In this document: piece after piece, positions 2,480 to 44,270 of the stretch | Layout: each line of letters opens with the position of its first letter | How positions within the stretch are numbered: the stretch's first letter is position 1 | NCBI GenBank assembly: GCA_038891615.1 | Contig: JAWADY010000001.1 | Span: 64,001-128,000, forward strand | Length of the DNA stretch: 64,000 bases | Reading direction: 5' to 3' | DNA from: Candidatus Woesearchaeota archaeon | Lineage (GTDB): Archaea; Nanobdellota; Nanobdellia; Woesearchaeales; ARS49 | The notes under the pieces: generated by a model | Told to the model about the DNA's origin: nothing | Seen by the model: the letters and a program-made list of their open reading frames with translations, nothing else | The model's database searches: none | Made by a program: the position numbers and the translations under genes

Positions 2480-4657
2480 ATGGTTGGTCCGGTGAGTGGC
2501 TCAAGAGCTTTTGCAGGTAAAAGAGGAAAGAGGAATCCAAAAACCGCAGAACAACAGCCTGGCAAGCTTGACAAACAACCTATCATTATCACCAGCGCCC
2601 TTACATATTCGAATGGTCCGTTGCACATTGGGCACATATTAGAATACATCCAAACAGATATAATTGCAAGGGCTTTGAAGAGCTCAGGGAAAGAGGTTAT
2701 TTATTGTGGTGGCGAGGACACTCATGGCACGCCAATAGAAATAAGCGCGATGAGGCTTGGAATTTCTCCCGAACAGCTTATTACAAGATTCTTTAAGGAG
2801 CATAAGGAAGACCTTGATGCCTTCTTTGTTCAGCCAGACTCCTTCTACTCAACACACTCTTCTGAAAATAAAGAGCTGGTTGACTTTGTTTTTAATACGT
2901 TGAGAAAAAATGGACACATCTATAAAAAGGATGTTGAATTAACCTATTGCCCAAAGTGTAGCCGTTTTCTCCCTGACAGGTTTGTGAAAGGAACATGTCC
3001 AAGGTGTGGAGCAGCTGACCAGTATGGTGATGTTTGTGAAGTCTGCGGCAGCAGTTATGCGCCAATCGAGCTCAAGGAGCCTTATTGTGCCATTTGTCAT
3101 AGTGCACCAACAAGAAAGGTATCAAAGCACTACTTTTTTAAGCTCTCATCTTTCTCAGACCAACTTGCTGACTGGCTGACTTCAAACAAAGCACTTCAGC
3201 CAGAAATAAAGAATCATGTTTTGCGATGGATTGAAAGTGGTTTGCAGGACTGGGACATAAGCAGGGATGGTCCTTATTTTGGTTTCAAGATTCCAGGGGA
3301 AGAAAATAAATACTACTATGTATGGATGGACGCACCAATAGGTTATATCTCGAGTCTTGCACATTGGTTTAAGGGCGACCTGCGCAAGGCTATTGAGTAT
3401 TGGAATAATGCCTATATTTTGCACATAATTGGCAAAGACATATTCTATTTTCATTTCCTTTTTTGGCCAGCCATGTTAATGGCAGCAGGTCTAAGAAAAC
3501 CAGACAGCATACTAGTTCATGGCTTTGTTACGATAAATGGAGAAAAAATGTCAAAGTCCAAAGGGACTTTTCTTACAGCAAAGGACGCGCTGAAAATTGC
3601 AAAGCCTGAATATTTTAGGTGGTATTTTGCATCCCATCTTGGAAGGACATTGGCCGATGTGGATCTAAATTTAACAGAGTTTAAGGAAAAAATAAACAGC
3701 GACCTCGTTAGCAACATTGCAAACTTTTGCTACAGGGTTCTTTCATTTGTTAACAGCCATCTAGACTCAAAGCTTGGCCATATCGACCCTGTAGATAAAG
3801 ATGTTTGTGAAGCATCGTTAGAAATAATAAAAAAAATAAAAACCGCTTATCTTAATTTTGAGATAAAAGAAGCTGTAAAAGGACTTCTTGAGCTTTCTTC
3901 TCTTGGCAACGCTTATTTCCAAAAAAACGCTCCTTGGAAGCTTATTAAAGGAGGTGTGAATGAAAAGATTAGGGCAAAATCTGTTGTCACCCTTGCAACA
4001 AACATTGTCAAGAATATTGCCATTCTCTCATATCCAATCTTGCCATCATTTTCAGCATCGATTGAAGCCCAGCTAAGGCTTAAAAACCTAAACTTTTCCG
4101 ATACAGGCTTTAATCTTGAAGACAGAAGTATTGGTACTGCAAAGGCTGTCTTTACAAAGCTCGTTGACATAAGGCTTACTGCAGAAGAACCATTTTCAAA
4201 GCTTGAGCTAAGGGTTGGAAAGATAATTGAAGCAAAAGTCCATCCAAATGCTGAGAAGCTTCTTGTGCTACAGGTTGATCTAGGTAGCGTTGGGAAGAGG
4301 CAACTTGTTGCAGGTATAAGACAGTGGTATACACCTGAAGAGCTCGTTGGCAAAAAAGTACTTGTGCTTGTCAATCTAAAACCCATAAAGCTGAGAGGAG
4401 TTGAAAGCCAAGGAATGATACTTGCGGCAAAGCGAGGAACTGATACAAGATTGGTTGAAGCAAAAAGCTCAGAGCCGGGTGATATTGTTTTTGTTGATGG
4501 TGTTGAACAAAAGCCAGAAAAACAAATAAAAATAGAACAGTTTGCGGATGTGAAACTTGTAACACGAAACAAAAAGGTCTTTTACTACGACAAACCATTA
4601 AAAACAAAAAAAGAAGAGCTGATTTCAGACATCGGCGACGATGCTGTTATTTCTTGA
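2480..4657 (+). CDS. metG: Methionine--tRNA ligase with C-terminal tRNA-binding domain
   Basis: HIGH (LHIGH), KMSKS, zinc knuckles, YVWMDAPIGY and a C-terminal OB domain (LRGVESQGMILAA). Exact start uncertain. Confidence 0.97.
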   Translation: MVGPVSGSRAFAGKRGKRNPKTAEQQPGKLDKQPIIITSALTYSNGPLHIGHILEYIQTDIIARALKSSGKEVIYCGGEDTHGTPIEISAMRLGISPEQLITRFFKEHKEDLDAFFVQPDSFYSTHSSENKELVDFVFNTLRKNGHIYKKDVELTYCPKCSRFLPDRFVKGTCPRCGAADQYGDVCEVCGSSYAPIELKEPYCAICHSAPTRKVSKHYFFKLSSFSDQLADWLTSNKALQPEIKNHVLRWIESGLQDWDISRDGPYFGFKIPGEENKYYYVWMDAPIGYISSLAHWFKGDLRKAIEYWNNAYILHIIGKDIFYFHFLFWPAMLMAAGLRKPDSILVHGFVTINGEKMSKSKGTFLTAKDALKIAKPEYFRWYFASHLGRTLADVDLNLTEFKEKINSDLVSNIANFCYRVLSFVNSHLDSKLGHIDPVDKDVCEASLEIIKKIKTAYLNFEIKEAVKGLLELSSLGNAYFQKNAPWKLIKGGVNEKIRAKSVVTLATNIVKNIAILSYPILPSFSASIEAQLRLKNLNFSDTGFNLEDRSIGTAKAVFTKLVDIRLTAEEPFSKLELRVGKIIEAKVHPNAEKLLVLQVDLGSVGKRQLVAGIRQWYTPEELVGKKVLVLVNLKPIKLRGVESQGMILAAKRGTDTRLVEAKSSEPGDIVFVDGVEQKPEKQIKIEQFADVKLVTRNKKVFYYDKPLKTKKEELISDIGDDAVIS

Positions 4658-4713
4658 TAATCCGCATATGTAAGCTTGCAAAAATTATAAAAGCAAAAAA
4701 TCACCTGATTGAT

Positions 4714-5310
4714 ATGAATTATAGGAAATTGTCAAGTTGGTTTGCAACAGCGCTTCTCCCTTTACTTTTTTATCTCCTAAGTATACTTGTCGTAGTCTAT
4801 TCCGAACATTTCCACCAAAAAGAGTTTGAGAAACTTGGAATTCCCCAAAATTTGAGAGAGCTTGATGGAAAAATTCTTTCTTACTTTGCGACGGGAGATG
4901 AAAAGGTGATTGAGAAGACAGGACTAAGAGAGGCTGAAAAAAGTCACTTGGCTGATGTGCGGAAGCTTGTAAAAGATGCAGAGAAGATTTTTGCGGTACT
5001 GCTTTTATTCTGGTTATTGGTTTTTTACACCAGCAATGAGAGAAAGAATGCACTTTTTGTTGGTAGTCTTTTGATAATAAGTATTCCTTTAATCTTAGCA
5101 GCAATCCCATTTGACAGCCTTTTTGTTGCGTTTCATCTTATAACCTTTCCACAAGGAGGATGGCTTTTTCCTCCTGGATGGGTGCTCACGCAAGTTTACC
5201 CAGTTGCTTTCTTTAGAGATGCTGCAATTAGCATAGCTCTTCACGGAGCGATTTTTGGAATCGTTCTTATGTTTTTTTCCAAGTTTGGAGATGAAAATTT
5301 TAATGCTTAA
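4714..5310 (+). CDS. Integral membrane protein, DUF1461/TIGR01906-like
   Basis: EKSHLADVRKL and FVAFHLITFPQGGWLF motifs, about 4 TM segments. ATG 4714 lies ~25 nt after a TATA-like TTATAAAA. Confidence 0.75.
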   Translation: MNYRKLSSWFATALLPLLFYLLSILVVVYSEHFHQKEFEKLGIPQNLRELDGKILSYFATGDEKVIEKTGLREAEKSHLADVRKLVKDAEKIFAVLLLFWLLVFYTSNERKNALFVGSLLIISIPLILAAIPFDSLFVAFHLITFPQGGWLFPPGWVLTQVYPVAFFRDAAISIALHGAIFGIVLMFFSKFGDENFNA

Positions 5311-5414
5311 AAGGATAAACTTTTCTGATGCTTAATGAAAAGAATGTGCTAAAATTGTAAGCAGCATGCTCCACAGAAATATATTTAAATGGCGATTAGG
5401 GATAAATTTTTAAT

Positions 5415-5503
5415 GGGCGCATAGCTCAGCCTGGTAGAGCACTTGGCTCTTAACTTCTTTGATAGAGACCAAGTGGTCGGGGGTTCAAATCCCCTTGCGC
5501 CCG
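5415..5503 (+). tRNA. tRNA-Lys(CTT) with 15-nt intron at 37/38 (5453-5467)
   Basis: Acceptor GGGCGCA/TGCGCCC, D stem GCTC/GAGC, anticodon stem CTTGG/CCAAG, loop CT-CTT-A|A, T loop TTCAAAT, discriminator G; CCA not encoded. Confidence 0.93.
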
Positions 5504-5506
5504 TTT

Positions 5507-5704
5507 CACCGAACGCTAGCGAGGAGCGTCGCAGCAAGGGAACGAAGTGACCGTTGGCGAGACGCCCGCAGCAAGTGAGGTGAAACCACCGAACGCTAGC
5601 GAGGAGTGTCGCAGCAAGGGAACGAAGTGACCGTTGGCGAGACGCCCGCAGCAAGTGAGGTGAAACCACCGAACGCTAGCGAGGAGCGTCGCAGCAAGGG
5701 AACG
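5507..5704 (+). repeat. Tandem 80-bp GC-rich imperfect-hairpin repeat, ~2.5 copies
   Basis: Units start at 5507, 5587 and 5667; identical except C>T at 5607. Confidence 0.95.
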
Positions 5705-5731
5705 CTGGCAATAAAAAACAAACATCCTAAA

Positions 5732-6802
5732 ATGCCGTCAAAAAGAGGTCAGCTGACACTTTTTATAATGATTGGAGTTTTTGTTCTTATTCTGCTGGTA
5801 GCTGCAGTATACCTAAACAGCTATCTGCAGGCAAAGAAATCTGAAAAGGTCCTTTTGACAACCCTTAAGCTTGCGCATCGTCCAGAAGTAATCACTCCAA
5901 CAGTCTGTGCTGATGGCACTGAGATTGGAAGCTGTTCAAAAACAAAGCCCTTCTTTTGCAACAAACAAAAAAGGTTAGTTGCAGACTGTCAGCGTTGTGG
6001 CTGCTTTCCAGGTAGTGACTGCCTTCCTGACGGGACCTGCACCAAACCTATTTTTACAGAAGGCAACTTTACCATTTACTTTTTGCCAATAAATTATGCA
6101 CCAAACGAATCAGGCTTTCTTAGTAGGGTTGCTGTTCTAAAGGAGCTACTTCAGGCAGAGTTGGGGCTTTCTGAAAAAAATTTTGTAATCATAGACGAAT
6201 CTCTTTTTTTTCCAACCACAGAGTGTAATCAAACAGCAAGCCAACTTCATCGTTTTGTTGATGTGTGGGCACAAAAGCGCACAGGCGCTGGTCTTGGAGG
6301 TGTAAAATTTACAGCCGGCATTCCTATTTATGATTACAGGATAATTGGTTTGGACAAGAACAACCAATCAATCGAGAACTGTGGCTGTGGATACACCTTT
6401 ATGTATTCACCATTAATTTACATAGGTGGAGCGGCCTGCAGCTTACAGCAAAATGCGCTGGCACACGAGATAGGACATAGCTTTGGTCTTTGCGACGAAT
6501 ACGACACTTGTGTTTGGCAGGCAACCTCTCTTGAGCTTTCAAACGCCTATGGTCATCCTTGTTTCAATAAAATGCCTGATGAAAATAATAGCAACTGCGG
6601 AAAGCGTTGTTGTGCAGGCGAAGAAGGACATCCTTTTGGCAAGGCATGTTGTGCTGGTAAATATGCAGACAAAAAAGAAGATGGCTGGTTTAGCTACCTT
6701 GGCTCTTCTAACATCCCCCCTCCTCGAAGGTCAACAGCAGAAATGAAAGCAGTCATTTTGGAATTTTTGTGCACCAATCTTGGGGTGTGTCAAGATGTTT
6801 GA
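5732..6802 (+). CDS. Cys-rich zinc metallopeptidase with class III (pilin-like) signal peptide
   Basis: From ATG 5732: MPSKRGQ|LTLFIMIGVFVLILL; zincin motif AHEIGHSFGLCDEY. The ORF-track extension upstream is just the repeat. Confidence 0.75.
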   Translation: MPSKRGQLTLFIMIGVFVLILLVAAVYLNSYLQAKKSEKVLLTTLKLAHRPEVITPTVCADGTEIGSCSKTKPFFCNKQKRLVADCQRCGCFPGSDCLPDGTCTKPIFTEGNFTIYFLPINYAPNESGFLSRVAVLKELLQAELGLSEKNFVIIDESLFFPTTECNQTASQLHRFVDVWAQKRTGAGLGGVKFTAGIPIYDYRIIGLDKNNQSIENCGCGYTFMYSPLIYIGGAACSLQQNALAHEIGHSFGLCDEYDTCVWQATSLELSNAYGHPCFNKMPDENNSNCGKRCCAGEEGHPFGKACCAGKYADKKEDGWFSYLGSSNIPPPRRSTAEMKAVILEFLCTNLGVCQDV

Positions 6803-7469
6803 AAAGGAAAGAAAAGGTTGGCAAAGGGCATGTATTACCTACTTCGGCATCATTCTTTTCTTTGTTTTGCTATCAAAAGTTGTCCTAGCAGAGTCTGAAA
6901 AGGTATTAAATTTTGACTTTATTGTTATGAAAAATGGCAGTGCACAGTTCAGCGATGCGAGGGTAAGTTTTGGTACCGCTGACCAGCCAAGCAGCCTTAG
7001 ACAGGATTGGTCTATTCGGTTTGGCAATTATTTTAGCTACATCCCACTTGTTTTTGTTCTTTATAAGGATCCGCCAGTGCTTGTTGACAGTTTGTTGGTA
7101 TCAAAAAAGCTTCCCTACACAAACAACACTGGTGTTCTTGAAGTTGCTTTCAAAAACAAAACCGTCCTGGCTTTTGATTTGGTGAAGCTTTGTGATGGAG
7201 ATAGCTTTTGTGAAGAGTTTGAAAACGCCCTCAGTTGTCCTTCTGATTGCCCTCTTGACAGGGTTGATGAGCTTTGCATTCCTGCTTTTGATGGCATCTG
7301 TGACCCAGACTGCATTGGCTCGTTAGACACTGATTGCATTGAAAAACAACTCCGCCCTTCACCGCTTACTGGCTCGACAATAATGCTTGTTTTAATTGCA
7401 GCAGTCATTTTATTTGTTATTGCTTTTCTTTTTCATTACATGAGAAGGAGGAAAGATACTTTTAAATAG
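6795..7469 (+). CDS. Secreted membrane-anchored Cys-rich protein
   Basis: Signal peptide, CDGDSFCEEFENALSCPSDC and DGICDPDC motifs, C-terminal TM with basic tail; overlaps the upstream stop. Confidence 0.7.
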   Translation: MFEKERKGWQRACITYFGIILFFVLLSKVVLAESEKVLNFDFIVMKNGSAQFSDARVSFGTADQPSSLRQDWSIRFGNYFSYIPLVFVLYKDPPVLVDSLLVSKKLPYTNNTGVLEVAFKNKTVLAFDLVKLCDGDSFCEEFENALSCPSDCPLDRVDELCIPAFDGICDPDCIGSLDTDCIEKQLRPSPLTGSTIMLVLIAAVILFVIAFLFHYMRRRKDTFK

Positions 7470-36474: not shown

Positions 36475-37722
36475 TTACTTAAAGGCACCCGGATCAAAGA
36501 CCGGCGGCCTATTTACATCTTTCACCGTAACTGTTATTTTCTTTGTAGCAGTGTTTGTGCCATCTGTTGCAGTAACCGTTACTTCGTGCACTCCCGCATC
36601 ATCATATGTTGTCTTGTAAGTTGTGCTGTTCATCCATCCACTTATCTTTGTGGTTATAGAATCTCCTTCAGGGTCTGTTACATTGAACTTCAGCTCGACT
36701 GTTTCTCCTTCATTGACTGTTATATCCGTAAGACCTGTTATTTGTGGAGGCTGGTTTCCTTTCTGAACAACAATGAAAAATGCTATTTTATCTGTTAACT
36801 CGCCATCGCTAGCTGTTATGTTAATCCGGTACTTGCCTTCGTCTCCAACCTTTGTTTGCCAGACGCCTCGCTCATCAAATGGAGGACTAAAAACAAAACT
36901 TATCTTGTCACCATCTGGGTCTTTTGCATTTGGCAAAAGGGTTATCCTGTCGCCCTCGTTTACAACGAAGTCCTGGATTGGAGCTATTACAGGTGGCCTA
37001 TTTACATTCTCAACAATAATCTTGACTGTCTTCGTTGTTGCTTCCTTTCCATCTGTTGCTGTTATAGTAACATTGTAGCTTCCGGCGTCATTGAATGTCG
37101 TCTCGTAGCTGTTTGTTTTCATCCAACCAGAATAGCTTACCGTCACATTGTCACCATCAGGGTCTATTATTTCAGGAGAAATAATCACTTTCTCTCCTTC
37201 TTTTACCCTTATGATGTCTTCGGCGAGTTGTATAACTGGAGCCCTGTTTGCATGTTTTACAATTATCTTAACAGTTTGCGTTACAACATTTACTCCATCG
37301 GAAACGCTTATGTTAACAAGATACTCGCCAGCATCTCCTTTCTTTGTTTGCCAGGTTCCATTTTCAGAAAGAGGTGCGCTGAATGAATATGTGAGATTGT
37401 TTCCCTCCGGGTCTGTTGCCTTTAGATTAGGGAAGCTTACAAGCTCTCCTTCTGTAACTATTTTTGTTGGATATTCCTCTTCACTCATTGTGGTTGTTTT
37501 TTCACCACTTTCAGTAACATTAAGCGCTGGCGTTTTTGTTTCTTCAACGCCTTTTGTTACATTCTCGGCACCTTCAGCCCCTGTAACAGCACCGCCACTT
37601 ACTTCGGTTATAGGCTGTTGTTCACATGGTTGTTGCGCAGCTTGTTTTAACTGGCAACCCGCAAACACAAGCACTGCGAGAAATGCAACAATTAGCAGAA
37701 TGAATCGTTGCATCTTTTTCAT
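36475..37722 (-). CDS. Lipoprotein with ~4 cadherin-like/Ig repeats
   Basis: Lipobox VFAGC, Thr/Glu linker, repeated NRAP/NRPP/NQPP...DP(D/E)G(D/N)...DG units in two alternating types. Confidence 0.8.
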   Translation of the reverse strand: MKKMQRFILLIVAFLAVLVFAGCQLKQAAQQPCEQQPITEVSGGAVTGAEGAENVTKGVEETKTPALNVTESGEKTTTMSEEEYPTKIVTEGELVSFPNLKATDPEGNNLTYSFSAPLSENGTWQTKKGDAGEYLVNISVSDGVNVVTQTVKIIVKHANRAPVIQLAEDIIRVKEGEKVIISPEIIDPDGDNVTVSYSGWMKTNSYETTFNDAGSYNVTITATDGKEATTKTVKIIVENVNRPPVIAPIQDFVVNEGDRITLLPNAKDPDGDKISFVFSPPFDERGVWQTKVGDEGKYRINITASDGELTDKIAFFIVVQKGNQPPQITGLTDITVNEGETVELKFNVTDPEGDSITTKISGWMNSTTYKTTYDDAGVHEVTVTATDGTNTATKKITVTVKDVNRPPVFDPGAFK

Positions 37723-37900: not shown

Positions 37901-38614
37901 TTAGGCTTTGCTGAATGCTTTTTGCCGAGCAGGCTTTAGGCGCTTAATCTTTAAAGCAGAAACCCTTCCAGATTCGAGATGAAGGTCGATATAGAAATCT
38001 CCGCTTATAGTTGACTCTTGTACAATCCTTTCTAAAAGCAACTCTCGCGCAAAAACAGAAGACTTTATGCTTTTATCGAGGACAAAATATATTGGAAGAT
38101 GATTTATGCCATGTTCGTTCAGGAAGCTTCCGTACTCTTTTGTCACGTCTCTAAATAGGAACAAAGTTAATGGTTCCTCATGCAATCGTTTGGTTGGAAT
38201 GTAAAGTGTCTCTTCTTTCGCTTCAAACATGAATGCTCCACTTTTTTGTGCCTCAATTGGATCCTTGCTGGAAATTTCAAGCAAATTATTTGTTTCCTCC
38301 GTTTTTAGAAAAAAATATCTTCCTTTGCTGGATATGTTCGTCGCAAATTTTGGTGACTTAAGAATTAGGTTGTTCTTTTTGTCGGCAACGACAATCCTGC
38401 CGTCAGCAAAATAATTAAAACTTTCTGCAACCCAGGTCCATGTAGAATTTGCCACGCTGCCAATGTCAGAGCTTATCCTAACCTCTGCTAAGTCACGACT
38501 GGTAATCAATTCAAGCCCATTTTGTTTCAAAGCCCTTATCCCTTTGTCAAAAGGGCCGGTGTACAAAAAAAAGTTCAATACCTTATCTTTTTTTACAATG
38601 CTTTCGTATTGCAC
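37901..38614 (-). CDS. Hypothetical protein
   Basis: 237-aa ORF with plausible composition and no recognised motif. Confidence 0.65.
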   Translation of the reverse strand: MQYESIVKKDKVLNFFLYTGPFDKGIRALKQNGLELITSRDLAEVRISSDIGSVANSTWTWVAESFNYFADGRIVVADKKNNLILKSPKFATNISSKGRYFFLKTEETNNLLEISSKDPIEAQKSGAFMFEAKEETLYIPTKRLHEEPLTLFLFRDVTKEYGSFLNEHGINHLPIYFVLDKSIKSSVFARELLLERIVQESTISGDFYIDLHLESGRVSALKIKRLKPARQKAFSKA

Positions 38615-38673
38615 AATATGCTTAATGATTTTCTTTTATTAAAACTTTGTGAATACTACTGTTTTGATCAAAC

Positions 38674-38757
38674 TGCGGCGGACAGGATTCGAACCTGCGT
38701 AGGCACTAAGCCAGCAGCTCCTGAAGCTGTCCCGTTTGGCCACTCCGGCACCGCCGC
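38674..38757 (-). tRNA. tRNA-Leu(CAG)
   Basis: Acceptor GCGGCGG/CCGCCGC, anticodon loop TT-CAG-GA, long variable arm, GGTTCGAATCC, discriminator A. Confidence 0.95.
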
Positions 38758-38795
38758 ACAGTCTTTTTTTCCACAACGAATGTTTAAATAATTTA

Positions 38796-39713
38796 TCATT
38801 TCTTTTTCCATCCGGTTCTGGCTCTCTCAAGCGCTTTCAGAACCCTTTTTTTGTCAAAACCATACCCTTCAACTAACAGTTCTAGAATAGCCGGTTCATT
38901 TATATCTTTCCACTTAATCTTGTAACGGTCTGTTATTGGCATTGTCTTTATGTGCTCAAAAACCTCTTGCCAAGAATATTCAAAGTTCCAACCAGCATCT
39001 CTGAAAAGCTTGTCAAAATCATTACCATACTGCTTCACAAGTTTAAGCCCTTTTTTTGGGCCTATGCCATGAATGCCTGGATTAAAATCTGTGCCTATAA
39101 GCATTGCAAGGGCAATGAGTTGTTTTTGGTCAATCCCAAGCTGCTGTAACAGTTCCTTGAGCTCTATAAGATAAGTGCCGGTAAGTACAAAACCTTTTTT
39201 TCTCGGTAGCCATCTGCGTTTTGCAAGACTAAAATTTACTATCATTCTTTTTGCCCCAAACAAAAGGCTATCAAAATCCTGGCTGGCGACCGCCCAGCAA
39301 TCTCCTCTTGTTGTCATAAATGCTGCCTGTGCTTCTGCTTCGCTTGGGGCCTGAAGCCATGGTACGCCTAAGCCTTCAAGCAGTTGCTTGCTGCTCAAAA
39401 GGACATGTTCGCTGACAGTTTCAGTTACTCTCGGTTGAAACTCTCCACGCACAATTCTTTCATGCTTACCTATTTCAAGCCATGGACCATCAAATACAAA
39501 AACAGGTTTTATTCCAATGCTCATCAACCTTGTTGTTCTGTAAAAAAGCCCAACAAGATGGCTAGTAAGCCTTCCTTTTCTGTCAGTGAGTCTTGGCATT
39601 GTTTTGAGAAACTGATAAAGTTCGATGAATGCATCTATTGCAATCGATTTTCCTTTTAGTTCTTTGAAGCTTATTGCCTTTCTTGGAACAATTGCAGAGA
39701 TATTAAAGCCCAC
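38796..39713 (-). CDS. Divergent flap endonuclease 1 (FEN1/XPG family 5' nuclease) homolog
   Basis: AIDA, LYQFL, TSHLVGLFYRT, VFDG, APSEAEAQAA, SQDFDSLLFG, GTDFN, GIGPKKG. GTG 39713 follows GAGGTGA. Confidence 0.92.
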   Translation of the reverse strand: MGFNISAIVPRKAISFKELKGKSIAIDAFIELYQFLKTMPRLTDRKGRLTSHLVGLFYRTTRLMSIGIKPVFVFDGPWLEIGKHERIVRGEFQPRVTETVSEHVLLSSKQLLEGLGVPWLQAPSEAEAQAAFMTTRGDCWAVASQDFDSLLFGAKRMIVNFSLAKRRWLPRKKGFVLTGTYLIELKELLQQLGIDQKQLIALAMLIGTDFNPGIHGIGPKKGLKLVKQYGNDFDKLFRDAGWNFEYSWQEVFEHIKTMPITDRYKIKWKDINEPAILELLVEGYGFDKKRVLKALERARTGWKKK

Positions 39714-39738
39714 AAATTTCACCTCGCTTTATAAGTTA

Positions 39739-40431
39739 TCATGGAATCATCTTTCTCTTTCTCAATTTTTGAGGAGTGTACGCTCTTTTGTGCGGCTTTA
39801 TTCGTAACCATTTCTTTTTCATTGCAACTTCCCATTGGGGAAGGAGCTTCTCCAACTTCCACACCCACAGCAGTCTCCAATCCCGCCATAATCCCTTCAA
39901 AAAATTTTTTGGCAAGCCAAGTTTTTCTGTGAGTGTTACTATCTTTTTTTCCGCCTCAGCATTCTTGATGTGGGCAGCCCTTCTACGCGGCCGACACCAC
40001 TCCAAAATTGGTGCGACCTTCTTCATTGCAGAGATTATTTTTTGTGCAGCCCTTGCTGCGGTGATACCTTTGTGATAACGCTTCTCCCTCAAGCCGCCCC
40101 AAAAATTAAAATCATAATGCCAGTGCTCAAGAGCCATTTTATGAAAAAAATCAAGTTCACGATGGTCGTAGCTTGCAATGTAGAATTTCAATGTCCGCGC
40201 ATCTAGTAGGTACCTAAAAATCTTTGCAAGCAGGGCCTCGTCTTGCTCATGACCAGAACGAACAATTTTAGCCGTGAGAATCTCATAAGCTGTTCCAGTG
40301 GTTGAATCGTATACGTCAAATATAACCTCTTTATGACGTCTTGCCTCAACAACCACAGAATGCCCTTTGGCTTTTAACTCCGCTGCCAGCTTTTCTTTGG
40401 CTTTGTCATGAAGTTCCTTGTACCAACTCAT
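39739..40431 (-). CDS. Basic Trp-rich protein with N-terminal PD-(D/E)XK-like nuclease pattern
   Basis: HDKAKEKLAAELKAKGHSVVVE...IFDVYD....AYEILT fits a restriction-endonuclease-like core; 4-bp overlap with the Thg1 stop. Confidence 0.55.
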   Translation of the reverse strand: MSWYKELHDKAKEKLAAELKAKGHSVVVEARRHKEVIFDVYDSTTGTAYEILTAKIVRSGHEQDEALLAKIFRYLLDARTLKFYIASYDHRELDFFHKMALEHWHYDFNFWGGLREKRYHKGITAARAAQKIISAMKKVAPILEWCRPRRRAAHIKNAEAEKKIVTLTEKLGLPKNFLKGLWRDWRLLWVWKLEKLLPQWEVAMKKKWLRIKPHKRAYTPQKLRKRKMIP

Positions 40432-41288
40432 CTTTCTTTAATCAGCTTTTCAATGAGCCTTTTACCTTCGCTGCTCATGAAGGTCTTCGGGGAAGTGTCT
40501 ACAACGATTTTATGCCTGACCACACGCACTCTTCTTTTTTTAATCGGATTGTAACCCACCTTTAAAAAGGGCTGTTTATAGAGGAGGATGCCCCATCTCT
40601 GCCATGCGGGTGTTTTGGAAAGGTCAATACCGTGCTTTTTGCAAAGCTTCTCAAGCTCTGCTGTTTTCATTCCAGATAGCTTTCTGGAAACCGATCGCGG
40701 TGAAAGACCAGCACGAAAGAGAACCTTCTGTGCCCATGCATTGTTATGATTTCTAAAACACTCTGCTTGGCGCCAGCGGAGATATTTGAGTATTAATCCT
40801 CTTTTACTTTTTTTGTTTCTACTAACTAGAGGAATGCATCTGCAGTCAAAAGCAACCACTTTCTTTTTCTTGAAAAGCCTGGCTAACTCATTTGTCAGTT
40901 TCGAGGAAGCAACTGCAGCAAAAATTGAATCAATCTTTTCAATCCGTCTAAAATTGACGGGTTTGAGAAACAAAAGGTTTATTTCGTCTGAGAAAATATA
41001 AGCCAAAGTGGGGTTAAACTTTTGAAATAACTCTTTTGTTGTTTCTATTAGCGCTTCGAGAAAACGCTTGTCAAAAGGTTTTGTAAATCTTAAACTTTTT
41101 GAAACAGAGTGAAATGCCCAACCGTCTAGCCTAACGAAAAAAGCTGTGCCAGGAAGTTCTATTCCAGAATAGACCTCATAATCAATGAGTGATAGCTTAC
41201 CACTGCTTGCTTCTGATTTTGGTTTTGGAAAGCCTAATGCCTTCCATGGCTTTTCGACACCTTTTACTCTAGAAGTTGACTGAGGCAT
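40428..41288 (-). CDS. thg1: tRNA(His) guanylyltransferase Thg1 / Thg1-like 3'-5' polymerase
   Basis: VRLDGWAFH, KPFD, YIFSDEINLLF, RIEKIDS, FDCR, WRQAE, WQRWG. Start at 41288 or 41318. Confidence 0.93.
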   Translation of the reverse strand: MPQSTSRVKGVEKPWKALGFPKPKSEASSGKLSLIDYEVYSGIELPGTAFFVRLDGWAFHSVSKSLRFTKPFDKRFLEALIETTKELFQKFNPTLAYIFSDEINLLFLKPVNFRRIEKIDSIFAAVASSKLTNELARLFKKKKVVAFDCRCIPLVSRNKKSKRGLILKYLRWRQAECFRNHNNAWAQKVLFRAGLSPRSVSRKLSGMKTAELEKLCKKHGIDLSKTPAWQRWGILLYKQPFLKVGYNPIKKRRVRVVRHKIVVDTSPKTFMSSEGKRLIEKLIKER

Positions 41289-41694
41289 GCTTTCGTGGGG
41301 TTTCAGCGACTTGTTCATGTAAATAGGTTAATATTCCTGAGAGCTCCTTGAATTTTGATGTGAAAAGTATTTTTCTAAACCTGGTGTTTACCTTCACGCC
41401 TCTCTGCTGCAACTCTGATTTTATTCTTTCTGCTAATTTATTTGAGTTTTTGTTGACATCAAAAATAAGTATACATTCTTTGCCTGATTCTATTATTTTT
41501 GAAAGAAGTCCGAACTCTGGCTTAGTGTAGAAATAAACATTTTTTATCTGAAGAGAAGAAAGAATGTCAGCGTCACTTTTATGCTGCACGAGAACAATCC
41601 GATCCCGCGAGGCATTCGCAAGGTGTTGCAGCCACTCTGTGAATTTGTGAATCTCTTCTTCTCCTTTTGGCTGTGGCTTGCGTTTTCTTGCCAT
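41269..41694 (-). CDS. Small Toprim-domain-like protein with degenerate active site
   Basis: IVLVQHKSDADIL (cf. VEGKxD), ILIFDVNKNSNKL (cf. DxDxxG), GVKVNTRFRK. Confidence 0.65.
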   Translation of the reverse strand: MARKRKPQPKGEEEIHKFTEWLQHLANASRDRIVLVQHKSDADILSSLQIKNVYFYTKPEFGLLSKIIESGKECILIFDVNKNSNKLAERIKSELQQRGVKVNTRFRKILFTSKFKELSGILTYLHEQVAETPRKHASVNF

Positions 41695-44168: not shown

Positions 44169-44270
44169 TGGGGCCGGGAGGATTTGAACCCCCGTTGGAC
44201 GCAAATTGGCTTGTGTCAAAATTTGTTCGTCCCCAAGCGCCAGTCATAGACCAAACTAGACCACGGCCCC
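44169..44270 (-). tRNA. tRNA-Pro(GGG) with 27-nt intron at 37/38 (44204-44230)
   Basis: Acceptor GGGGCCG/CGGCCCC, anticodon stem GGCGC/GCGTC, loop TT-GGG-G|T, bulge-helix-bulge core TTGG/CCAA, T loop TTCAAAT. Confidence 0.92.

Follow-up and report, generated by a model that had tools for sequence, protein, structure and literature searches.

Does a polymerase that extends nucleic acids in the 3′–5′ direction work together with the putative nucleases encoded directly behind it? This question is raised by a locus within a 64,000-nucleotide stretch of DNA (called the window; G000:C1:64001-128000) from a Candidatus Woesearchaeota archaeon whose genome, G000, is 661 kb in size and 97.9% complete. 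Three adjacent genes of the window encode a Thg1-like protein (TLP), a 230-amino-acid protein without a known family (ORF230) and a short paralogue of flap endonuclease (FEN). The reading that we tentatively favour, and to which we give somewhat less than an even chance, is that these genes form an accessory trim-and-refill cassette for nucleic-acid 5′ ends. The cassette and its boundaries are arranged as follows.

41269–41694, minus strand: Toprim-like gene, 141 amino acids; a marker of the upstream boundary, not a member of the module
40428–41288 (frame open to 41318), minus strand: TLP, a 3′–5′ nucleotidyltransferase of family PF04446, 286 amino acids
39739–40431, minus strand: ORF230, founder of an orphan family, 230 amino acids, assigned by AlphaFold2 (AF2) model and fold search
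38796–39713 (open reading frame 38796–39722), minus strand: short FEN paralogue, 305 amino acids, with XPG_N and XPG_I domains
38673–38758, minus strand: tRNA-Leu(CAG), the downstream boundary of the cassette

All four open reading frames (ORFs) are co-oriented on the minus strand, with tRNA-Leu(CAG) next in line. The probable start of the TLP gene is the ATG at 41288, which yields 286 amino acids and is the same start as in database entry P0161; it lies inside the last 20 nucleotides of the Toprim-like gene. The ATG of ORF230 shares the sequence ATGA with the TLP stop codon. For the short FEN, the probable start is the GTG at 39713 behind a GAGGTG motif, giving 305 amino acids as in entry P0041 and leaving a gap of 25 nucleotides after ORF230. 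A spacer of 38 nucleotides separates the FEN stop codon from the start of tRNA-Leu(CAG) and contains a TATA-like sequence, TTATTTAAA, ahead of the tRNA. A prediction made earlier from the letters of the window (the original prediction) had described four co-oriented genes with these two overlaps, this gap and the tRNA at this distance, and our reading of the DNA agrees with it in every detail.

The TLP gene product matches PF04446 with an E value of 8.3e-27; the score is 94.1 bits, where the cut-off is 29.2, and a search of the whole genome gives 96.3 bits. Its match to Thg1C, at 22 bits, stays under the cut-off of that model. A profile built from the clade of the window protein finds the Methanosarcina acetivorans TLP structure 5AXK as its best structural match (6.1e-65), and eukaryotic Thg1 structures of the human and yeast type follow at about 1e-29 or weaker. 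On this sequence evidence the protein is of the TLP subtype, with templated repair as its predicted activity, and is not a eukaryotic Thg1. Its RLDG (D55) and SDE (D101-E102) motifs, which presumably supply the metal-binding carboxylates of the Thg1 palm domain, are invariant in 37 sequences. The window copy is the only Thg1 in G000, and its nearest named relatives are mostly from Aenigmatarchaeota. According to a published report, archaeal and bacterial TLPs mend 5′-truncated tRNA in vitro, one of them from an archaeon in which the G at position –1 (G-1) is encoded, and their physiological role is unsettled (PMC3061083). Repair of tRNA 5′ ends in vitro is reported for archaeal and bacterial TLPs such as those of M. 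acetivorans and Bacillus thuringiensis (PMC3061083, PMC4820378).

ORF230 has no match in Pfam, NCBIfam or PADLOC. Its homologues fall into 38 clusters at 45–66% identity, all of them hypothetical proteins of DPANN metagenome-assembled genomes with the source labels Aenigmatarchaeota, Pacearchaeota, Micrarchaeia and Bilamarchaeaceae. When a hidden Markov model (HMM) of the family was compared with 1.84 billion cluster representatives, one full-length 50% cluster, one fragment of 60 amino acids and one marginal match were returned, and the family thus appears compact and without detectable remote relatives. An HMM search at every length found no full-length copy of the domain inside a larger protein. 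In an alignment of 20 sequences, D39, D42, E50, K55 and six histidines are invariant, and the C-terminal part carries the motif LGLPKNF...WRDWRL.W.

The AF2 model of ORF230 (predicted local distance difference test, pLDDT, of 85; predicted template modelling score, pTM, of 0.81) comprises an alpha-beta-beta-beta-alpha-beta core in residues 1–123 and a conserved helical domain in residues 125–210, to which the G000 copy adds a basic, disordered tail. A Foldseek comparison with the Protein Data Bank (PDB) gave nothing under an E value of 1e-3, and a sequence search of the PDB with the ORF230 profile gave no meaningful match. Exhaustive comparison with VIA-align, restricted in its matches to residues 1–123, places restriction-endonuclease-fold proteins in nearly all of the top 50 positions at Z values of 5–8.3, which count as middling by the tool's own warning. 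We therefore base the fold call on the consistency of this list rather than on the size of Z. The matches include a RAP-domain protein, SfsA, AF1548, VC1899/Card1/Can2, SdaI and XisH as well as YaeQ, Vsr, NucS, Hjc and CdiA-CT, and the Atlas leads for ORF230 agree with the same fold. In the model, strand 2 carries D39 and D42, strand 3 carries E50, and the invariant lysine is K55 rather than position 52. As modelled, the N-terminal domain of ORF230 is a PD-(D/E)XK fold, and what the original prediction had guessed for this ORF holds at the level of fold. A side observation concerns locus L011 (4995–5672), where the ORF230 homologue appears as two ORFs of 102 and 116 amino acids, possibly a broken gene or a sequencing error.

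The short FEN scores 292.6 bits against TIGR03674, below the cut-off of 351.95, and the match is split, with model positions of about 98–122 absent. The same genome encodes a canonical FEN1 at G000:C2:31017-32021 that covers 338 model positions at 377.5 bits, above the cut-off. The window copy, called divergent in the original prediction, belongs to a separate clade (below) and is not the sole FEN of its host. About 32 clusters of 286–321 amino acids match the window FEN at 301–414 bits; next below them come canonical FEN1 proteins of 339–356 amino acids at no more than 283 bits. An alignment of 36 rows against canonical FEN1 shows that the short FENs have lost 5 residues after helix 2 and about 22–24 residues that form the top of the helical arch, or cap. 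Canonical rows end in a Q-x-x-L-x-x-F/W tail of the PCNA-interacting peptide (PIP) type, and short rows end about 15–20 residues earlier. The catalytic acids are kept: D27, E127, D146, D148 and D209 are invariant in the 36 sequences, and conservation of D75 and E125 is 90% or higher, which completes the seven-carboxylate site.

The AF2 model of the window FEN (pLDDT 94) has no helix in residues 75–101, where pLDDT is about 95, and its best structural matches are archaeal FEN-1 proteins (TMq 0.83–0.86), ahead of XPG, Rad2 and GEN1. In lacking the cap, the short FEN would be comparable to XPG and GEN1. In a maximum-likelihood tree of 59 rows, 39 short and 20 canonical sequences are split at 100/100 support, by which the short FENs are assigned to a monophyletic DPANN paralogue clade. 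One protein of 295 amino acids, P0135, is placed among the canonical FENs and is probably a truncated member of that group. The short FENs linked to ORF230 are spread across the short clade rather than forming one cluster, and the canonical FEN1 of G000 groups with a protein whose source is named as Woesearchaeota. Judged by the conservation of the FEN acids, the TLP carboxylates and the D, D, E and K residues of ORF230, the enzymes of the cassette look active.

We used an even set of 401 genomes of the host phylum, each at least 90% complete and 28 of them from the same family, to assess how widespread the three genes are. A FEN match is present in 397 of the 401. This tally and those of the Toprim-like gene include unpublished genomes (G242, G243, G321, G332, G359, G395 and G418), on which no conclusion hangs. 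Five genomes with extra matches were taken (G166, G167, G250, G267 and G311), and each has a short paralogue in addition to canonical FEN1. In G311 (locus L026, 935–3065) three genes stand head to tail with overlapping ends: one for a methylpurine DNA glycosylase, then that of the short FEN, and a PF04013 RNA-methyltransferase-like gene. A separate observation is that G401, a genome of about 700 kb and unstated completeness that contains locus L005, has no match to the archaeal FEN1 model and carries Thg1 together with the closest ORF230 relative (66% identity).

ORF230 and Thg1 are both rare in this sample. G000 is the only one of the 401 genomes with ORF230, and Thg1 occurs in G000 and one other genome, so that 399 lack a match; neither gene is present in any of the 28 genomes of the same family. 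For the cassette genes, the nearest relatives with a name come from Aenigmatarchaeota. The Toprim-like gene has a different distribution. It had been taken as a module member in the original prediction, and it proves instead to be a lineage-conserved neighbour that is matched in 22 of 31 same-family genomes including G000 (21 of 30 without G000), with orthologue-level matches of 38–47% identity in seven of them, and that is absent from all other ORF230 loci. Its similarity to an NCBIfam PRK04017-type model has an E value of 1e-11 at 45 bits against a cut-off of 124, its Pfam matches to Toprim_2 and Toprim_4 are weak (E 0.08–0.16), and visual inspection suggests that other residues stand where the acidic motif is expected.

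The insertion site can be recognized in two relatives. In G037 and G028, the orthologue of the Toprim-like gene is followed by a PAP2 membrane-protein gene and by a tRNA-Leu(CAG) nearly identical to that of the window, after which comes a DNA ligase gene on the other strand. The other two of the four relatives examined, G385 and the unpublished G242, have no such tRNA nearby. The three-gene cassette therefore occupies the slot of PAP2 in these two relatives. Because its genes are rare in the phylum and PAP2 stands between the same flanks in G037 and G028, the trio seems to be an inserted cassette and the Toprim-like gene a mere neighbour. The cassette has probably been acquired horizontally and probably has a patchy distribution among DPANN archaea of hot springs. 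Its flanks carry no meaningful direct or inverted repeats, no integrase is seen at its borders and its composition shows no anomaly.

Searching with the ORF230 alignment gave 18 loci. L017 duplicates L008 and L018 duplicates L010, so that with the window included 17 distinct loci could be compared; neighbours were identified by tblastn using the window proteins. Among the 13 ORF230 loci with 800 or more nucleotides of upstream sequence, seven have Thg1 on the same strand within 2 kb upstream (our own, L005, L007, L008, L014, L015 and L016), and its stop overlaps the ORF230 start in four of them (our own, L007, L008 and L016). Of the 12 loci with 900 or more nucleotides of downstream sequence, four have a short FEN within the first 700 nucleotides (our own, L010, L013 and L020). 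Canonical FEN1 divergently adjoins Thg1 in L007, L008 and L014; it is the only FEN in the genomes of L007 and L008 by whole-genome search, and L014 is a metagenome contig. The polymerase and nuclease genes had been paired in the original prediction on the strength of this one locus, and the linkage is found to be conserved at these frequencies.

The ORF230 copies of the compared loci are 45–77% identical to one another, and recurrence of the same neighbours around homologues this divergent indicates that the arrangement is more than chance. The L016 copy does not exceed 52% identity with any of the others, which means that linkage extends across the full divergence of the family. Contigs of identical size also recur across the Thg1, ORF230 and short FEN searches, one of 40754 bases (P0167, P0023 and P0046) and one of 26280 bases (P0215, P0005 and P0044), which suggests that each of these contigs carries all three genes together.

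Locus L010 has another order, in which a HIT gene is followed by a LigD primase-polymerase gene (Prim-Pol; PF21686, 4.8e-70) that overlaps the ORF230 start, and then by ORF230, a short FEN and DUF72. No canonical FEN1 was found in its genome, G406. This bin is labelled Saccharibacteria, and the presence of an archaeal-type FEN with ORF230 in it (3829–7323, identical in L018) suggests mis-binning or transfer. Across the loci, the partner of ORF230 is most often a 3′–5′ polymerase, then a capless FEN and once a LigD primase-polymerase. This pattern fits a cassette that is centred on ORF230 and whose recurrent partners act on polynucleotide ends.

How might such a cassette work? Gene anatomy, fold and family assignments, intact catalytic motifs, linkage, phylum rarity and insertion site are established directly, and to them we add a scheme whose every biochemical step and substrate we infer. 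ORF230, the capless and PCNA-independent FEN, or both would first remove damaged or blocked nucleotides from a base-paired 5′ end; with its cap absent, the short FEN may need no threading of a free 5′ end. Because cleavage by PD-(D/E)XK and FEN enzymes usually yields 5′-phosphate ends, the product of this step would be a recessed 5′-phosphate end. The TLP would then activate the 5′ phosphate with ATP or GTP and refill the strand in the 3′–5′ direction, templated by the opposite strand. The likeliest substrates would be structured RNAs, such as the acceptor stems of tRNA. Some pairs of ORF230 and FEN sit with DNA-repair genes, so that ends of DNA or of RNA/DNA hybrids may serve as well. A three-chain complex prediction using alignments of the TLP, the short FEN and ORF230 scored 0.07 relative to a mark of 0.32, a result that speaks neither for nor against binding.

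The tRNA genes of the host narrow the choice of substrate. The tRNA-His(GTG) gene (G000:C3:358-441) has a 13-nucleotide intron in its anticodon loop and an encoded G-1 opposite C73, which answers the point left open by the original prediction about G-1. Since G-1 is encoded and 399 of the 401 phylum genomes are without Thg1, a housekeeping role restricted to G-1 addition is unlikely. RNase P RNA is also present in G000, and with G-1 encoded and a canonical FEN1 that has a PIP-like tail elsewhere in the genome, no housekeeping role is needed from the cassette. Acceptor stems are fully paired in 37 of 38 full-length Rfam tRNA hits. The exception is a tRNA-Gln hit whose apparent mismatch arises because the Rfam match starts inside a D-arm intron; both tRNA-Gln genes have introns in the D loop and their true 5′ halves pair perfectly. 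The tRNA genes of G000 therefore give no indication of editing in the style of protists, the analogy on which the original prediction had drawn and for which no substrate is visible, and any substrate would be damaged rather than edited.

Anticodons were typed by hand from the Rfam hits because ARAGORN missed tRNA-His. In its intron mode, ARAGORN typed tRNA-His as tRNA-Tyr and other intron-bearing tRNAs as Ser, Pyl and SeC. The tRNA-Gln genes (TTG at G000:C3:123673-123772 and CTG at C3:122460-122558) have a Y-family polymerase-like gene between them. A second tRNA of the window (44169–44270, minus strand; Rfam 41.8 bits), which ARAGORN missed at default settings, has an intron and the loop CTTGGGG, corresponding to Pro(TGG). 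Another intron-bearing tRNA, at G000:C1:39238-39342, has an anticodon loop that reads TAT and would be an uncommon tRNA-Ile(UAU).

Several observations weigh against the trim-and-refill reading. One to three unrelated genes stand between Thg1 and ORF230 in L005, L014 and L015, and three loci with full 5-kb flanks (L006, L009 and L011) have neither Thg1 nor FEN beside ORF230. The same two genes are missing from the small flanks present on the short contigs of L012, L019, L021 and L022. Genome searches found no Thg1 match in G402, G406 or G407, and in G405 Thg1, ORF230 and FEN are on three separate contigs. Thg1 clusters on contigs of 10 kb or more number 22, and only 7 of them pair with an ORF230 contig of the same size. 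In the five genomes with an additional short FEN, this gene is found without ORF230 or Thg1 and among unrelated neighbours. The E50...K55 spacing of ORF230 differs from the classical (D/E)xK motif, so that its catalysis is only predicted. No acceptor-stem mismatch is encoded in the tRNA genes of G000 that could serve as an editing substrate. Furthermore, near-identical DNA of the locus is listed in hot-spring metagenome DNA runs only, with no RNA run among them.

A first alternative is that ORF230 and the short FEN are a PCNA-independent pair of DNA-repair nucleases, which would process flaps or branches or take part in long-patch base excision repair or in end joining, and that the TLP is a separate tRNA-maintenance enzyme in an old syntenic block. 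We regard this explanation as unlikely, yet it is the best of the alternatives. The pair in L010 stands behind HIT and the LigD Prim-Pol (PF21686, 4.8e-70), the short FEN of L026 stands behind a methylpurine DNA glycosylase, and the syntenic slot adjoins DNA ligase in same-family genomes. The structures also lend themselves to this explanation, in that the short FEN folds like archaeal FEN-1 and the nearest folds to ORF230 include the DNA enzymes SfsA, Vsr, NucS, Hjc and restriction enzymes. What speaks against it is the overlap of Thg1 stop and ORF230 start in four divergent loci, the place of Thg1 as the commonest neighbour of ORF230 (7 of 13 loci) and the arrival together of two genes that are each rare in the phylum.

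Somewhat less probable still is the absence of any functional coupling, wherein the TLP guards G-1 or tRNA 5′ ends alone, the short FEN is a spare nuclease, ORF230 is unrelated to both and the three are adjacent owing to inherited gene order and a single transfer. The occurrence of ORF230, Thg1 and the short FEN each alone in several genomes is what would be expected in that case, as are the unrelated genes that intervene in L005, L014 and L015. Against this stands linkage that holds at 45–58% ORF230 identity, a neighbour of ORF230 that switches between Thg1 and FEN and is always a nucleic-acid end enzyme, and the trio standing in place of the PAP2 gene as a single block.

A defence or toxin-type cassette, in which the nucleic acid of an invader or of the host is damaged by a PD-(D/E)XK effector and this damage is reversed or modulated by the TLP or FEN, would suit the patchy distribution resembling horizontal transfer, the matches of ORF230 to Card1/Can2, CdiA-CT and retron-associated nucleases and the fact that PD-(D/E)XK folds are common defence effectors, but it is improbable given that none of five scanned proteins matches a PADLOC-DB 2.0 model at E values up to 0.01 (a 2023 library, with newer systems outside it), that searches of IMG/VR viral contigs found neither ORF230 nor the Thg1 clade of the window protein, that no integrase and no flanking direct repeats were seen and that the neighbouring genes are housekeeping genes.

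The trim-and-refill reading has consequences beyond this genome. To our knowledge, the 5′ nuclease that prepares substrates for 3′–5′ polymerases has not been identified even in the protist editing systems. If the reading is correct, the long-missing nuclease partner of Thg1-like proteins would be named, and 3′–5′ synthesis might reach RNA/DNA or DNA repair in thermophilic DPANN archaea. The stronger claim, that this is the first dedicated prokaryotic machine for trimming and refilling 5′ ends, in which a new PD-(D/E)XK family and a capless FEN feed a TLP, is in our view doubtful. Literature searches found no partner nuclease of a prokaryotic TLP; they found no report linking Thg1 or TLPs with FEN, a PD-(D/E)XK partner or DPANN gene clusters (supplementary tables were outside the search) and none on the ORF230 family or a capless archaeal FEN clade. 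The cluster offers two concrete candidate partner nucleases for TLPs, whose physiological role remains open according to the report cited above (PMC3061083). Two protein groups that lack annotation emerge from it as well: the ORF230 family and the capless, PIP-less FEN clade, the latter of which is now labelled as ordinary flap endonuclease in genome annotations.

Two further ORFs lie on the minus strand beyond the downstream boundary. An ORF of 237 amino acids (37901–38614), the next one after tRNA-Leu, matches no model of Pfam, NCBIfam or PADLOC and by tblastn is absent from the other ORF230 loci and from four same-family stretches. The second (36475–37722) encodes a secreted-looking protein of 415 amino acids in whose translation four tandem Ig-like or cadherin-like repeats of about 90 residues can be seen by eye.

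Each component of the cassette, and the cassette itself, can be compared with a known system. ORF230 shares its core fold (Z 6–8.3) with members of the PD-(D/E)XK superfamily such as SfsA, AF1548, XisH, YaeQ, NucS and RAP domains, and its strands 2 and 3 bear invariant acidic residues and an invariant lysine. It differs from them in lacking a sequence-family match, in the odd spacing of E50...K55, in its additional invariant histidines and in a helical C-terminal domain that is specific to the family. The short FEN resembles canonical archaeal FEN1 (TIGR03674) in its XPG_N and XPG_I domains, catalytic acids and H2TH/H3TH region, and its predicted fold resembles the FEN-1 structures of P. furiosus and D. 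amylolyticus (TMq 0.83–0.86). Unlike canonical FEN1, it lacks the cap, the PIP box and 5 residues after helix 2, has a sub-equivalog score and belongs to a separate clade that exists beside canonical FEN1 in the same genome.

At the level of the whole system, the proposed order of a nuclease step followed by 3′–5′ templated repair is that of mitochondrial tRNA 5′ editing in Acanthamoeba and Dictyostelium, although those systems act on encoded acceptor-stem mismatches and G000 encodes none. LigD-type end-joining modules are approached most closely in L010, where the pair of ORF230 and short FEN stands directly behind LigD Prim-Pol and HIT. No Ku, ligase or phosphoesterase was noted beside ORF230 among flanking ORFs that were partly checked, and the window cassette has a 3′–5′ polymerase instead. 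The TLPs of M. acetivorans and B. thuringiensis share with the window TLP the PF04446 domain and the invariant carboxylate motifs, and M. acetivorans, as described in PMC3061083, shares with the host a tRNA-His whose G-1 is encoded in the genome. Unlike the known archaeal and bacterial TLPs, the window TLP is joined with two putative nucleases in an operon-like unit.

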